Below the pieces are notes generated by a model. That model saw only the letters and a program-made list of their open reading frames with translations, was not told where the DNA came from and did no database searches. Position numbers and translations under genes: made by a program. Positions 11,426-17,406 of a DNA stretch of 64,000 nt are shown piece by piece. Numbering within the stretch: position 1 is the stretch's first letter; every line of letters begins with the position of its first letter. Location: the NCBI RefSeq assembly GCF_056712565.1, contig NZ_CM160072.1. The stretch is one strand, 5' to 3'.

Positions 11426-12565
11426 TTACCAGTTATGAATGTCGCTGGCTGTATCCGTCATGTAACGGACACCGCTAATAGTTGGCAGCAACTGATTGAT
11501 CAGACGGTTCCAGCGGGAAACCGGGGCGGTGGTGACATACACCACGTCATAAGGTTGCAGGCGGAATTCTGTCGCCATCACCAGCGACGTGGCATCGGAC
11601 ATATCCAGCTGGTAGATATTGGCAATCTTGCCATTACGCCCGCCCTCGCCTTTCAGCGGACGAATGACAAAGATGCCGCTGGCGTTGGAGGTGGTCATGT
11701 CGATGCCTTCAGCATTGCCCAGGGCTTCAGTCAGGGTCATGCCGCTAAAGTCCATTTTCAGGGTGCTCTGTTTCTTCACTTCACCCATCACAAATACTTT
11801 CAGATCATCATTACGCGGCACGTAAAGAATATCGCCGGGGTAAAGCAGTCGGTTCTGATTGAGGTCGCCGTTTTGCATCAGCGCCTGCAAAGAAATGCGC
11901 TCTTCACGACCATTGTGTGTTAGCACCACGTTGCGCCAGTCAGCGGTATCAGTCAGGCCACCCGCGGCGTTGATGGCATCGAGAATGGTCAGTGGCACGT
12001 TGGTGATCGCCTGTTGGCCGGATTTATTCACCTGTCCGGAGATATAGGCCTTTTGTGAGCGGAAGGCGGCGATATTAACGTCCACCTGCGGGTCAGCGAT
12101 GTACGTCGCTAAGCGCCCGGTAATATCACTGCGGATTTCAGCGAGCGTTTTCCCCACGACGTGAACCTTGCCGATATACGGGTAGAACATGGTGCCGTCA
12201 GGCTGTACCCAGTTGCCGGTGTCGCTGGAGCTGCGGTACTGACCAGCTGGCGTGGTGAGTTCCGGGTGATCCCAGACGGTGACATTAAGAACGTCCCCCG
12301 GCCCGACGCGATACTGATAATTCGCGATCTCACTTTCCAGCGTCATATTGGGGCGCGCTACGTTGGGGCGTGGGCGTAATTGATCAATCAGGCGCGGGGT
12401 CAGCGGATAAACATTCACCATTTTGTCGAGATCGAAATCAGCGTCCTGCTGTTTGATGACGTCTTTCCCCATCGTCGACATATTGCTGCCCGGAAGTACT
12501 GTGCAACCGCTTATCAAGGTTACTGACACCAATAATGGCATCAATTTCATTTTGGATTTCATCAT
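11426..12565 (-). CDS. wza: Outer-membrane polysaccharide export lipoprotein Wza
   Basis: 379-aa ORF; lipoprotein signal LISGC; first gene of the capsule operon. Confidence 0.92.
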
Positions 12566-12743
12566 TGTTTATTTATCACTTTGGCAGAGTAATTATCCTG
12601 TGCACTATTAATAGCAATGTCGCCATGCACATTTACCTTGCAGTTAATTGAATAAAAATTTAACTGGCATCAGTCCTAAAAAAATTGATTTCATCCGCAG
12701 GCTATTGACAGAATAATTCAGACTGGTCTTTCAGGCATCCAGA

Positions 12744-12755
12744 CACGCTACCGCC
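12744..12755 (-). promoter_or_regulatory. ops element (GGCGGTAGCGTG) within JUMPstart, RfaH-dependent antitermination site in the wza leader
   Basis: Plus strand reads cacgctaccgcc at 12744..12755, i.e. GGCGGTAGCGTG on the wza strand, ~180 nt upstream of the wza start. Confidence 0.75.
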
Positions 12756-12968
12756 CCTGGCTTTTTAGCTACCAATACACTGATTTAGCTTAATTTTTAA
12801 AACCCTCTCAACATACAGTCGTTGATGAGAAAGGGTTATTGCGGAAATTAACTTCCGAATATAAGGTGACATTATGGTAATTGAATATTGGCTCTCCAAT
12901 AATGCAGGAGGAAGTGTTACAGCTAACGGAATAGCAGGCAAGGTAACAATTCGGCAATTGGCTATTTT

Positions 12969-12982
12969 TAAGAATTATATTA
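12969..12982. promoter_or_regulatory. Possible RcsAB-box-like sequence upstream of wza (taagaattatatta)
   Basis: Loose resemblance to the RcsAB box consensus as I recall it; location in capsule promoter region. Confidence 0.25.
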
Positions 12983-13223
12983 AGTGTCATTCAATATGGT
13001 TTTTAGGAGTTTCTTTAGGTTGACAATATTTAATATAGTGTCTCCACATGCGATATTTCTTAAATAATGTTTTATTATTACCACTTTTAATTCAGGGATA
13101 ATGTGAGGTTATTACCCTCAAATAATATGAGATAAATAGTGCTGCAACATTGCATTTTTGCCCCGATTTATCCATGATCGAATTGTGACATTTGTCATAC
13201 AACGAATAGGTTTTGTACTTACT

Positions 13224-14807
13224 ATGGAATGGATTGCCGATCCGTCTATCTGGGCCGGGTTAATCACGCTGATTGTGATCGAACTGGTCCTCGGCATTGA
13301 TAACCTGGTCTTTATTGCCATCCTCGCCGAAAAACTACCGCCGAAGCAGCGCGACCGCGCACGGGTTACCGGGCTGCTGCTGGCGATGTTAATGCGCCTG
13401 TTACTGCTGGCGTCAATCTCCTGGCTGGTCACCCTGACTCAACCGCTGTTCAGCTTCCGCTCGTTTACCTTTAGCGCCCGCGATTTAATCATGCTGTTTG
13501 GTGGTTTCTTCCTGCTGTTCAAAGCCACGATGGAGCTGAACGAACGGCTGGAGGGGAAAGACAGCAATAACCCCACACAACGCAAAGGTGCGAAGTTCTG
13601 GGGGGTGGTGACACAAATTGTGGTACTGGACGCCATCTTCTCACTCGACTCGGTGATTACCGCCGTCGGGATGGTCGACCATTTACTGGTCATGATGGCC
13701 GCCGTCGTTATCGCTATCAGCCTGATGTTGATGGCCAGCAAGCCATTAACGCAATTTGTTAACAGTCACCCGACGATCGTTATTCTCTGCTTAAGCTTCC
13801 TGTTGATGATTGGCTTTAGCCTGGTGGCAGAAGGTTTCGGCTTCGTCATTCCGAAAGGCTACCTGTACGCTGCTATTGGTTTCTCGGTGATGATCGAGGC
13901 GCTCAATCAGTTGGCTATCTTTAACCGGCGACGTTTTCTTTCCGCTAACCAGACGCTGCGCCAGCGGACTACCGAAGCGGTAATGCGCCTGCTTAGCGGG
14001 CAAAAAGAAGATGCGGAACTGGACGCCGAAACCGCGTCTATGCTGGTGGATCATGGTAACCAGCAAATCTTTAATCCGCAGGAACGGCGGATGATTGAGC
14101 GGGTACTTAATCTTAACCAGCGCACCGTCAGCAGCATTATGACGTCGCGCCACGATATTGAGCATATCGATCTCAACGCACCGGAAGAAGAAATCCGCCA
14201 GTTGCTGGAGCGAAATCAGCATACGCGGCTGGTGGTTACCGACGGTGATGACGCAGAAGATTTGCTCGGTGTTGTTCACGTTATCGACCTGCTACAACAG
14301 TCTCTGCGCGGCGAACCGCTCAACCTGCGGGTGTTGATTCGCCAGCCGCTGGTGTTCCCGGAAACCTTGCCGTTGTTACCTGCCCTGGAGCAGTTCCGTA
14401 ATGCCCGCACGCACTTTGCTTTTGTAGTGGATGAGTTTGGCTCGGTGGAAGGAATTGTGACATTAAGTGACGTCACTGAAACCATTGCCGGTAACTTACC
14501 GAACGAAGTGGAAGAGATCGACGCCCGCCATGATATTCAGAAAAATGCGGACGGTTCCTGGACGGCGAATGGTCATATGCCGCTGGAGGATCTGGTGCAA
14601 TATGTGCCGCTGCCGCTGGATGAAAAACGTGAATATCACACCATTGCCGGGCTATTGATGGAATATTTGCAGCGTATTCCAAAACCTGGCGAAGAAGTTC
14701 AGGTGGGGGATTATTTGCTTAAAACGTTGCAGGTGGAAAGCCATCGCGTGCAGAAGGTGCAAATTATTCCGCTACGTAAGGATGGCGAGATGGAGTACGA
14801 AGTGTGA
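13224..14807 (+). CDS. yegH: Inner-membrane TerC-family / CBS-CorC-domain protein YegH
   Basis: ORF 13158..14807; start set at [34 protein letters not shown]; TM N-terminus, CBS-like C-terminus. Confidence 0.85.
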
Positions 14808-14881
14808 TAAAACATCAAATGCGCAGGTTCAAACTGCGCATTTGATTTATACAAAATTTAGTATAATCTAAGGATGGAGTA

Positions 14882-15220
14882 ATGAGAAAAAAGCTGGCTT
14901 TTCTTGATACCAGTCTTGACGATTTACGCGCATTTCCAGAATCGTCTCGACAGGAAATTGGCTATCAACTCGACAGGATCCAACAAGGGTTAAACCCATA
15001 CGACTGGAAACCTTTTTCAACTATCGGCCCTGGTGTGCGAGAGATTCGTACTCGCGATGCTGATGGGATCTATCGCGTCATGTATATCGCAAAATTTGAA
15101 GAAGCGGTTTACGTATTGCATTGTTTTCAAAAGAAAACACAGACTACCAGTCAATCGGATATTGATTTAGACAAACGACGCTATAAAGAACTTGTTCAGG
15201 AGCGGAAAAATGAAAATTGA
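14882..15220 (+). CDS. Type II toxin, RelE/ParE superfamily (HigB / Gp49-like)
   Basis: 112-aa ORF with ...GIYRVMYIAKFEEAVYVLHCFQKKTQTTSQSDIDLDKRRYKEL, typical of Gp49-like RelE/HigB toxins; immediately followed by an HTH antitoxin gene. Confidence 0.7.
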   Translation: MRKKLAFLDTSLDDLRAFPESSRQEIGYQLDRIQQGLNPYDWKPFSTIGPGVREIRTRDADGIYRVMYIAKFEEAVYVLHCFQKKTQTTSQSDIDLDKRRYKELVQERKNEN

Positions 15221-15500
15221 AACCTTTGATAGTGTGTGGGATGCGGTGAGTGACACCCCTGAACAAGCGGAAAATATGCGGATCCGTGCCGAACTTGTAA
15301 CGATCATTAATAACTGGATTGAACAACAAGGGTTTAGCCAGGCTCAGGCAGCGTCTGCTTTAGGGGTCACTCAACCTCGCATATCTGAACTTGCCAGAGG
15401 TAAGATCCAGATCTTTAGTATCGATAAATTGATCACCATGATGGCTCATGCAGGATTGCATATTCAACGTATTGAAATTCAATATCCACATGCTGCTTAG
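15210..15500 (+). CDS. XRE-family HTH antitoxin (HigA-like)
   Basis: Start chosen at MKIETFDSVWDAVSDTPEQAENMRIRAEL with GGAG Shine-Dalgarno; HTH motif QAQAASALGVTQPRISELARGK; overlaps toxin 3' end by 11 nt. Confidence 0.7.
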   Translation: MKIETFDSVWDAVSDTPEQAENMRIRAELVTIINNWIEQQGFSQAQAASALGVTQPRISELARGKIQIFSIDKLITMMAHAGLHIQRIEIQYPHAA

Positions 15501-15552
15501 TGCTATAAATACAGATGGCGACAAATTGACGCCGCCATCTGCATAACTTGTC

Positions 15553-17406
15553 TTACATCTTCTCCAGCAACTTCTTCACATCTTTGCCATTGCGGGAATC
15601 TTTATTCCGCTCGGCCCAGTCATTCAGGCGACGTTTCGCTTCGTCCTGTAGATGTTTGCGCAGTAACTGATCCACTTGCAGGCTGTAATTGAGTTGCTGC
15701 CAGTTGCCATAAACCCGCAGCGGTACTGGCGTTTCTTTGAGGAAATCAATCAGTTTGCTTTCTCCGTTCCAGCCACCAATCACACGAATGTCAAACTGGG
15801 TGTCGCAGGTTTGATCTGCCAGATTCAACATGCCTTCCCCTGTCAGCGCCAGCACTGGCGATTGACCTTGCATGTCGTTTAACGTCACGACGCCATCCTT
15901 CAACGTCAAATCGGTGGTAAAGCGGTCAAGACGCGTCACGTTATCAAAGTTTTCAGCGGCCTTCACATCACCACCATTACGTTCTACCGCTTGCTGAATC
16001 ATCTGCTGGAAGTTCATCCCTTCCATGCGTGTGTCGGTCATTTCGACATGTGCCTGTCCTTGCCAGTTGTGGCGGAATGCGTCGGCATCTATGTCAGCAC
16101 CGGAGAAATCACCAGCCAGTGACATCTTTCCGGTCAACGAAATCGGATAGTTAAACGCCTTCAGAATGGTACCAATCTCAACGTTTTCCAGCCGTGGCTG
16201 GAAGTTTATCCGCGGATTTATTGATGTCGCGTCCAGCGTGCCCGGCAGCGAAACCTGTCCACCGTTAAGCTTGCCCTGCAGTTGAGTAATTTCCAGCAAA
16301 CCCGACTTGTTGGTCATTTGCGTGGCAACGTCTGTAAAATTCATTCCGCGCCAGCGCACGTTACTGGCCTGCAACAAAATATCAGCCGTAAAGCCATGCA
16401 ATCCCTGATAGGCCGGTTCATCAATACGCGAAGAAATGACCGGGCGCGGCAACGTGGATTGGCTCTGCCCTTGCTGCGCGGCACCGTTTTCACCGTTCGC
16501 TGTTTCTTTAAGCGGGATGAGGTTGTCAAGATTCAGTTGCGGGAATTGCAGTCTCAGCTGCCATTCCGGTTTCTCTGTCAACGTGACCTGTGCTTGCCCG
16601 CTCAGCGTACTGTCATTGGCGGTCAAACTAATTTGGTTAAATGAAAGGCGTTTATGTGACTCCTGCCACTGGGCCTGGAAACTCCCCTGCCCCTGAATAC
16701 CTTGTTTTGGTAAATCGGCACCCTGCAACTGCCAGTTAATTTGTTCAATAGCCGCCGTTAAATCATGCGGATAATCAGAAGCATCTACCGTACCGTTAAG
16801 GGATATCGTGAGGTCGCGCTGATCGCGATTAACCCGCCCGGAGAACTCAAATGAGCCACGATGTTGGGGATCTTGTTCCATTTGCAGGCGGATATTGCGG
16901 ATTGTCACCTGCTCGTCATCTTCATGCTGGAACACCAGCACGCTGTCCGCCATCTTAAGACTGGATATATCAAACGACCATCCGCGATCGTCTGACAGAT
17001 CCGGCAAGGTATTGTCGCGCGGTGCAACCGGAGCGTCTTCACTGCGCACCGCTTCCGTCTGCGGCGTCAGTTGGATCACAGCCCCTTTTAGCATCACCTG
17101 CTTAACGCTCAGTTGATGACTCAGTAGTGGTAAAAGCGCCACGTCCAGACGCATGTTGTCGGCGCGAACCAGTGGCTGGCTCGCGCCCTGGGCGGTGAGA
17201 GACATTCGCCCGGAGAGGATACTAAGCTGCGGCCAGACGTGCCAACGCAGTGGCCCGTCGAGCTGCAATTGATAACCGCTACGTGCAGCAACTTGCTTGA
17301 CCATATAGTCGCGGAAATCATTCGGATTCACCAGCAACACTAACGCAGATAACCCGGCCACCAGCACGACCAGGAGTATCATCAGCGTCGTCAGAAATCG
17401 TCTCAT
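15553..17406 (-). CDS. asmA: Outer-membrane assembly protein AsmA
   Basis: 617-aa ORF MRRFLTTLMILLVVLVAGLSALVLLVNPNDFRDYMVKQ. Confidence 0.9.
   Translation of the reverse strand: MRRFLTTLMILLVVLVAGLSALVLLVNPNDFRDYMVKQVAARSGYQLQLDGPLRWHVWPQLSILSGRMSLTAQGASQPLVRADNMRLDVALLPLLSHQLSVKQVMLKGAVIQLTPQTEAVRSEDAPVAPRDNTLPDLSDDRGWSFDISSLKMADSVLVFQHEDDEQVTIRNIRLQMEQDPQHRGSFEFSGRVNRDQRDLTISLNGTVDASDYPHDLTAAIEQINWQLQGADLPKQGIQGQGSFQAQWQESHKRLSFNQISLTANDSTLSGQAQVTLTEKPEWQLRLQFPQLNLDNLIPLKETANGENGAAQQGQSQSTLPRPVISSRIDEPAYQGLHGFTADILLQASNVRWRGMNFTDVATQMTNKSGLLEITQLQGKLNGGQVSLPGTLDATSINPRINFQPRLENVEIGTILKAFNYPISLTGKMSLAGDFSGADIDADAFRHNWQGQAHVEMTDTRMEGMNFQQMIQQAVERNGGDVKAAENFDNVTRLDRFTTDLTLKDGVVTLNDMQGQSPVLALTGEGMLNLADQTCDTQFDIRVIGGWNGESKLIDFLKETPVPLRVYGNWQQLNYSLQVDQLLRKHLQDEAKRRLNDWAERNKDSRNGKDVKKLLEKM

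Follow-up and report, generated by a model that had tools for sequence, protein, structure and literature searches.

We assess the DNA between yegH and asmA in this Escherichia coli chromosome to be, with a probability of about 0.85, a chromosomal type II toxin–antitoxin (TA) module of the gp49/Tad-Ata kind with a HigBA-like gene order, and to represent one allele of a variable yegH–asmA segment. The window referred to throughout is the whole stretch of DNA that was analysed, 64,000 nucleotides of contig NZ_CM160072.1 (RefSeq assembly GCF_056712565.1), and positions are given in its coordinates. The features at the locus are as follows.

14808–15552, + strand: allelic cassette of 745 bp, spanning the entire interval between the stop codons of yegH and asmA
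14814–14846, no strand assigned: terminator-like hairpin with a 13-bp stem, just 3' of the yegH stop
14847–14866, no strand assigned: 20-bp palindrome TTATACAAAATTTAGTATAA, which the HTH antitoxin is predicted to use as its operator
14862–14867, + strand: consensus −10 hexamer TATAAT, identified from sequence
14876–14879, + strand: predicted Shine-Dalgarno-like GGAG of the toxin gene, 2 nt before the ATG
14882–15220, + strand: toxin gene, 112 aa, with ATG at 14882 and a TGA stop ending at 15220
14946 and 14969 (14946–14978), + strand: two 10-bp direct repeats CTCGACAGGA, 23 bp apart, in the toxin gene
15198–15202, + strand: predicted Shine-Dalgarno motif AGGAG of the antitoxin gene, within the toxin gene and 7 nt 5' of the ATG at 15210
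15210–15500, + strand: antitoxin gene, 96 aa, with ATG at 15210 and a TAG stop ending at 15500
15512–15541, no strand assigned: hairpin with a 9-bp stem (CAGATGGCG/CGCCATCTG) and a 12-nt loop, in the gap separating the stop codons of the antitoxin gene and asmA

Locus organization

The cassette is bounded by the end of yegH at 14807 and by the end of asmA, on the opposite strand, at 15553, and the sequence at the locus is 100% identical to that of E. coli ATCC 11775. The two reading frames overlap by 11 nt (15210–15220). A TTG at 15192 is a possible upstream start that would give a 102-aa antitoxin; RefSeq and all homologues begin with MKI. The hairpin that follows yegH probably insulates the module against yegH transcription, and the hairpin beyond the antitoxin gene is probably a terminator serving both of the convergent genes. 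The terminator scan made no call at the latter because its loop exceeds 8 nt. An Rfam search of the cassette returned no match.

The neighbouring genes are yegH, asmA, dcd and udk, with no defence island, and no transposase, resolvase or res site lies near the locus. Elsewhere in the window, the stretch at 12500–13200 between wza and yegH has a GC content of only 30–41% and carries a 49-aa hypothetical protein in the RefSeq annotation of other strains.

The toxin and its predicted active site

The toxin belongs to the gp49/Tad family within the RelE/ParE superfamily. It matches Pfam Gp49 (PF05973) over profile positions 1–90 of 90 (E 2.8e-28, 98.2 bits, cut-off 23.9) and phrog_2523 in PHROGs (E 6.6e-35), and a search of a large protein database yielded 6707 homologues at E≤1e-5, many of which are 55–70% identical across Proteobacteria. 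Among the homologues listed, the source names are confined to RelE/ParE-family or addiction-module toxin, 'phage-related protein', Gp49 and hypothetical protein. The canonical HigB models of Pfam (PF05015 and PF09907) gave no match to the toxin at E≤0.01, nor did the Pfam models for RelE and ParE (PF05016). NCBIfam TIGR02683 (upstrm_HI1419 RelE/ParE toxin) scored 23.3 bits, below its cut-off of 62.85, and PADLOC-DB 2.0 gave only a marginal score of 14.9 bits to NsnC.

The sequence-only reading had described a 112-aa Gp49/RelE-superfamily toxin overlapped by 11 nt by an XRE-type HTH antitoxin, and the reading frames, the profile matches (98.2 bits for PF05973 and, as detailed below, 78.1 bits for HTH_37) and the RelE-like predicted fold bear this out on both counts; both profile scores greatly exceed what chance would give. 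Its further description of the pair as HigBA-type holds for the toxin-first layout, but not for membership of the HigB family in the strict sense, as no HigB model matches and the HigA equivalog TIGR02607 gives the antitoxin 16.3 bits, below its 47.7 cut-off.

An AF2 model of the toxin built from 30 homologues (pLDDT 83) shows a RelE-like fold, in which one strand and two helices precede three strands and a long C-terminal helix (residues 91–111). The top Foldseek match in the PDB is M. tuberculosis HigB1 on the ribosome (7nbu, TM 0.65), and the next good alignments are V. cholerae HigB2 (TM 0.63) and S. pneumoniae HigB (about 0.6). Searches of the PDB with the single toxin sequence gave marginal matches only (E 0.095); in a profile search, the sole sequence match was S. 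pneumoniae HigB (E 0.0016, residues 65–104), and this alignment pairs R65, F82 and K84 of the toxin with R73, F90 and K92 of the pneumococcal protein. The pneumococcal R73 and K92 correspond in turn to R77 and K95 of M. tuberculosis HigB1 and to R61 and R81 of RelE, and F90 has been equated with M. tuberculosis F93 (PMC9098466). By spacing alone, E54-x-R56 and Q87 would match E66, R68 and Q98 of M. tuberculosis HigB1. E54, R56, R65, F82 and K84 are invariant in an alignment of 30 diverse homologues. The C-terminal helix is rich in lysine and arginine (K98, R99, R100, K102, R108 and K109), and in this respect it resembles that of the toxic M. tuberculosis HigB1, whereas the corresponding helices of HigB2 and HigB3, which are non-toxic, are negatively charged. 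From the family assignment and the match to ribosome-bound HigB1, we predict that the toxin is a ribosome-dependent mRNA endonuclease.

The allele in the window differs from the common E. coli toxin at two positions, with I69 in place of the common valine and D97 in place of the common alanine. Position 97 (codon at 15169–15171) lies at the start of the C-terminal helix and is alanine in at least 90% of the family, so that Asp97 is the derived state, and this substitution could weaken the toxin. The exact toxin sequence of the window was found in about 4 of 30 evenly sampled carrier genomes.

The antitoxin and the toxin–antitoxin pair

The antitoxin matches Pfam HTH_37 (PF13744; E 4.4e-22, 78.1 bits, cut-off 27), phrog_2339 in PHROGs (E 5.4e-27) and, in the PDB, entry 2a6c (E 3e-14), and its score in PADLOC-DB 2.0 is marginal (21.2 bits to candidate PDC-M64C). 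It is composed of an N-terminal segment containing a conserved FxSVWDA motif (residues 6–12) and the C-terminal HTH_37 DNA-binding domain.

To model the pair, each toxin was joined to its own antitoxin by a Gly-Ser linker and 30 such pairs were aligned. The resulting model has a mean pLDDT of 89.7 and a pTM of 0.85, all five models reach at least 85.8, and the confidence of the toxin rises from 83 alone to about 95 in the fused pair. The antitoxin forms a strand at residues 3–6 and a short helix at 9–13, followed by a long helix and the HTH domain; within the N-terminal segment, S8-V9-W10-D11-A12 is nearly invariant. Residues 42–44 of the toxin form a short strand in the pair model only. We read the model as placing the antitoxin N-terminus, folded, onto the toxin.

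The pairing of the two genes is also strictly conserved. In a scan of species-representative genomes, the toxin gene is followed immediately, on the same strand, by an antitoxin homologue at all 80 other-species loci among the matches listed, and 70 of 86 toxin–antitoxin pairs have a 4-nt gene overlap. The matches listed from these genomes include no other Escherichia species.

Promoter and predicted operator

The right arm of the palindrome upstream of the toxin gene overlaps most of the −10 hexamer, and the palindrome is likely to be the operator of the antitoxin. The hexamer itself points to a plus-strand promoter with a perfect −10 at 14862–14867. The sole TTG upstream, TTGATT at 14842–14847, would be separated from it by a spacer of 14 nt, so any −35 element would be weak or atypical; a strict sigma-70 promoter scan called no plus-strand promoter here.

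The palindrome is identical at 20 of 20 positions, and at an equal distance from the start codon, in the copies carried by Salmonella plasmids. These copies have unrelated flanks and saturated synonymous sites (dN/dS against these plasmid homologues is not computable at such saturation). Identity of the palindrome despite saturated synonymous sites argues that the predicted operator is under constraint. The wider family retains the motif at a fixed position upstream of the toxin gene: TATAC-N8-GTATA, with at least 8 of 10 positions matching, occurs at 68 of the 80 other-species loci among the matches listed, compared with about 3.9 expected from shuffled sequences. The strikingly conserved putative operator is TATACA-N6-TGTATA, and the consensus aligned on the motif reads cTTGcc, 5–6 nt, TATACAAAATnTTGTATA, nT. 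In the predicted family promoter, the palindrome occupies the 17-nt spacer between −35 and −10, and the −10 hexamer is made up of its last four bases and the next two.

At 43 of these 68 loci (again among the matches listed), the start codon lies 8–9 nt past the palindrome, a spacing that would place the beginning of transcription at or next to the start codon and yield a leaderless mRNA. The toxin mRNA is probably leaderless in most members of the family. The E. coli copy departs from this design (window positions 14839–14881 were compared), with 16 nt and the GGAG between the palindrome and the ATG. No paper containing the operator sequences was found in a literature search, and the putative promoter design, with the operator in the 17-nt spacer and forming part of the −10 and the toxin start at the transcription start, appears to be absent from the literature searched.

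Relationship to known systems

The combination of a COG4679 (DUF891, gp49) toxin with a COG5606 HTH protein was named Tad-Ata; such systems were first found on plasmid pAMI2 and also occur in phage N15 and SXT, and Makarova et al. linked the Tad toxin to the RelE RNases (PMC2701414). A 2025 survey lists gp49/PF05973 as one of 13 RelE/ParE families, with about 22,000 entries under the names gp49, tad, HigB1 and HigB3, and assigns to it ribosome-dependent mRNA degradation and a toxin-first gene order (PMC11980606). The Tad-Ata systems of pAMI2 (Paracoccus aminophilus), N15 (gp49/gp48) and SXT (s045/s044) likewise have a PF05973 toxin first, followed by an HTH antitoxin, which belongs to COG5606 or COG1396. 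The toxin described here is 32% identical to N15 gp49 (E 6e-16), whereas its antitoxin has no BLASTP similarity to N15 gp48, which makes the N15 partner an HTH protein of another type. The E. coli copy also occupies a fixed chromosomal site, in contrast to the plasmid, phage or ICE location of these examples. Exactly the same PF05973 and PF13744 pair, toxin first, is found in Tn3-family transposons (Tn4662a, TnPosp1 and others; PMC7157771); unlike those Gp49–HTH_37 modules, the E. coli locus has no nearby transposase, resolvase or res site.

Among structurally characterized proteins, the best match is M. tuberculosis HigB1, the toxin of the TAC system (Rv1955; 7nbu/7awk). Both proteins have the long C-terminal helix and share the residue spacing of E66/R68/R77/F93/K95/Q98 in HigB1 and E54/R56/R65/F82/K84/Q87 in the E. 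coli toxin. They differ in that identity is only about 17% and that TAC needs a SecB-like chaperone, of which there is none at the E. coli locus. The HigBA systems of S. pneumoniae (6af3/6af4) and A. baumannii, like the present pair, combine gp49-domain toxins with HTH antitoxins, and the A. baumannii pair has demonstrated RNase activity and represses its own expression (PMC5906591). Only the C-terminal half of the toxin shows similarity to these systems, and this similarity is weak; the operators are not known to be related. Canonical HigBA (Proteus vulgaris Rts1, K-12 ygjN–ygjM and V. cholerae HigBA-1) has the same toxin-first order and pairs a ribosome-dependent RNase of RelE fold with an XRE-type HTH antitoxin, but belongs to the Pfam families PF05015/PF09907, which are unmatched here, and to an antitoxin model, TIGR02607, that falls below its cut-off here.

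The closest relatives outside Escherichia are 75–80% identical and reside on Salmonella conjugative and IncFII plasmids; a search of PLSDB for these variants found no near match. On a Salmonella diarizonae plasmid contig, a second, divergent Gp49 and HTH pair (L007, 5913–6504) lies about 1.5 kb from the close homologue and adjoins TraX/TraW-like transfer genes. Prophages of Mycobacterium abscessus encode a toxin that shares 57% identity with that of E. coli, together with a matching antitoxin, which is unusually close for a comparison across phyla, and Mycobacterium phage phiGD20-1 (L022, 1489–2069) has a related upstream palindrome, TATATC-N6-GATATA. A literature search by gene names, protein accessions and locus tags found no experiment on the E. 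coli locus.

Distribution and alleles of the yegH–asmA segment

Among 5426 complete E. coli genomes, 792 have a full-length locus, in some cases with a frameshifted toxin, and its position is invariably between yegH and asmA. About one in six E. coli genomes has the module at this site. Carriers include O157:H7, APEC O2:K1:H7, LY180 and ST540. In K-12, yegH and asmA are adjacent, there is no trace of the pair, and the intergenic segment is an unrelated 273 bp with a REP element at its end. The segment as a whole has at least four alleles of unrelated length: 67 bp (comparison locus L003, 1609–1675), 273 bp (L001, 1609–1881), 451 bp (L002, 1609–2059) and 745 bp (window 14808–15552). The 451-bp allele is the 273-bp allele with a 178-bp insert, and the 67-bp allele contains little beyond a REP element. 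An Rfam search of the K-12-type alleles gave only sub-threshold REP-like (naRNA4) and TwoAYGGAY matches, so these alternative alleles encode no known RNA.

The break points between alleles are the two stop codons. The cassette bears no similarity to the K-12-type intergenic alleles: the match to K-12 and the other alleles breaks off at 14808 and resumes at 15554, and no target-site duplication was seen on reading the junctions. The exchange thus looks like replacement of a segment instead of a simple insertion. The module is 97.6–99.4% identical between distant strains, and its flanking genes are 97.2–98.5% identical; the toxin taken separately is 99.1–99.4% identical across distant lineages. 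The similar identity of module and flanks indicates that the module is either old in the species or has moved together with its flanks by homologous recombination. Three records labelled as plasmids, at 97–98% identity, were considered as possible plasmid-borne E. coli copies. Inspection of two of them showed chromosomal segments flanked by yegH and asmA, so on the strength of two of the three the E. coli locus is chromosomal only.

These data also bear on what had been proposed from the window's letters. The K-12 arrangement had been stated correctly, and the cassette is indeed AT-rich, with 41.9% GC compared with 52.8% in yegH and 52.5% in asmA. The survey of presence and absence at the junction that had been suggested as a check reveals a variable site, with the full-length locus in 792 of 5426 genomes and K-12 lacking the pair. 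The same counts contradict the description of the pair as strain-specific, and a further 117 genomes carry decayed copies. Of the proposed accessory insertion, the accessory part stands, but a clean insertion does not, given that the whole segment differs and no target-site duplication was seen.

Decay of the locus

The 117 further genomes have a 5'-truncated toxin gene beside an intact antitoxin gene. In this allele, K-12-type sequence joins the toxin gene at window position 15051, with loss of the promoter and the first 56 codons; in one example an IS110-family element is found further to the left. This element, described as an IS110-family 'RNA-guided transposase', interrupts the 178-bp insert that the K-12-type sequence contains in the O157:H16-type hybrid allele (L004, about 405–1785, CDS 489–1514), with ...AGGGAT on one side and GTTACC... 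on the other. A different form arises from a 23-bp deletion between the CTCGACAGGA repeats, which frameshifts the toxin and leaves the antitoxin intact (alignment of the window with L005); it was counted in 59 records by matching the identity band. These repeats are the site of a frameshift deletion found in a recurrent lineage. In a scar allele, seen in one genome, the last 62 bp of the cassette remain alone.

Two further records show other irregularities. In E. coli NDM2, a chromosomal-type segment recorded as 'plasmid unnamed3' (L013, 2335–2953) encodes a toxin with W42C at an invariant tryptophan and an antitoxin whose frame breaks after residue 54, which may represent decay of both genes or an assembly error. 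In E. coli G3/10 (NZ_CP060075.1), only the last 96 bases of a 300-bp hybrid-junction query match, in two places; the match corresponds to the toxin from about window position 15105 onward and suggests another form of truncation.

A full-length antitoxin is retained by 908 of the 909 carrier genomes. The toxin, by comparison, has full-length coverage in 790, about 730 of which are free of the 23-bp deletion, and in roughly 170 genomes a broken toxin has an intact antitoxin next to it. Where gross damage is present, it affects the toxin in most genomes. Such a bias fits an active toxin because the antitoxin cannot then be lost first. The asymmetry comprises two or three independent events that have spread clonally, and it counts gross damage; toxin-first decay on this small number of events would be in line with an active toxin.

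Proposed mechanism and alternative explanations

Our proposal starts from what is observed at the locus, namely the family, the predicted fold, the residues at catalytic positions, the strict pairing of the genes, the conservation of the palindrome, and the distribution and decay in E. coli. Both genes would be expressed as one transcript from the promoter whose −10 hexamer (14862–14867) lies in the right arm of the palindrome. The HTH_37 domain of the antitoxin would bind the palindrome, presumably as a dimer and probably aided by bound toxin, and the antitoxin would thereby repress its own operon. The conserved N-terminal segment of the antitoxin would fold onto the toxin and block it. When the supply of the antitoxin, which we infer to be labile, falls, free toxin would enter the ribosomal A site and cut mRNA, and its presumed RNase activity and toxicity would bring translation and growth to a stop; any benefit to the cell is likewise presumed.

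A gyrase poison of the ParE type would fit the general fold, which is common to RelE and ParE, and ParE2 (5cw7) is indeed among the Foldseek matches (E 7.8e-4). However, the TM score to ParE2 is 0.42 compared with 0.65 to HigB1, there is no Pfam ParE match, the Arg, Lys and Phe of the RNase members and the long C-terminal helix of gp49-type HigB toxins are all present, and the gp49 family is listed as acting by ribosome-dependent mRNA degradation (PMC11980606), so that we consider gyrase poisoning very improbable. That the locus is a dead or tamed remnant, in which a harmless toxin accompanies an HTH protein kept as a small regulator or by inertia, is better founded and still unlikely. None of the mapped catalytic residues has been lost, the C-terminal helix is still positively charged, and the toxin, at 99.1–99.4% identity, is at least as conserved as the flanks (97.2–98.5%). 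Neutral decay of two genes of similar size would not predict that gross damage falls mostly in the toxin. These points have to be set against the non-toxic HigB2 and HigB3 of M. tuberculosis, which belong to the same Pfam family (PMC9098466), the D97 of the window allele at a nearly invariant alanine, the breakage of the toxin in about a fifth of carrier genomes, and the fixed chromosomal site with no mobile-element context.

The function of the module may lie in selfish persistence, a stress response, defence or immunity to related plasmid modules, and stabilisation of neighbouring DNA had also been suggested from the sequence. Two of these ideas can be set out more fully, and we regard each as a minority possibility. 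If the main role were abortive infection, shut-off of host transcription by a phage would deplete the antitoxin and free the toxin. Some TA modules of the RelE/ParE superfamily have been linked to defence (PMC11980606) and homologues are common in phages and prophages (phrog_2523, E 6.6e-35; N15 gp49; the M. abscessus prophages at 57%), but the PADLOC matches are at noise level, the best being 21 bits for the antitoxin, and the locus, among yegH, asmA, dcd and udk, lies outside any defence island; phage defence as the main role is accordingly doubtful. In a further scenario, which we put forward tentatively and with low expectation, the chromosomal locus, most of all where it retains an orphan antitoxin, would confer anti-addiction immunity against incoming plasmids or phages carrying gp49-type modules. 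The antitoxins of the Salmonella plasmid copies are closely similar in sequence to the chromosomal antitoxin and the operator is identical, so the chromosomal antitoxin could repress and neutralise a plasmid module; the idea is weakened by the rarity of these Salmonella plasmid variants, judging from PLSDB. The reading that we prefer thus remains that of a chromosomal type II gp49/Tad-Ata module.

Implications

The novelty of the pair as such is low, as the family is well described and the pair is already labelled in RefSeq, one gene as a RelE/ParE-family toxin and the other as an HTH protein. The yegH–asmA site nevertheless provides a natural allele series (intact, frameshifted toxin, 5'-truncated toxin, 62-bp scar and none), and this series is suited to the study of how chromosomal TA modules are lost. 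As K-12 is without the locus, it offers a clean background in which the toxin, with its natural pair of A97 and D97 alleles, could readily be studied. For the family as a whole, a strikingly conserved putative operator that supplies part of its own −10 hexamer leads to a model of autoregulation that is open to test and would apply to some 22,000 Pfam entries.
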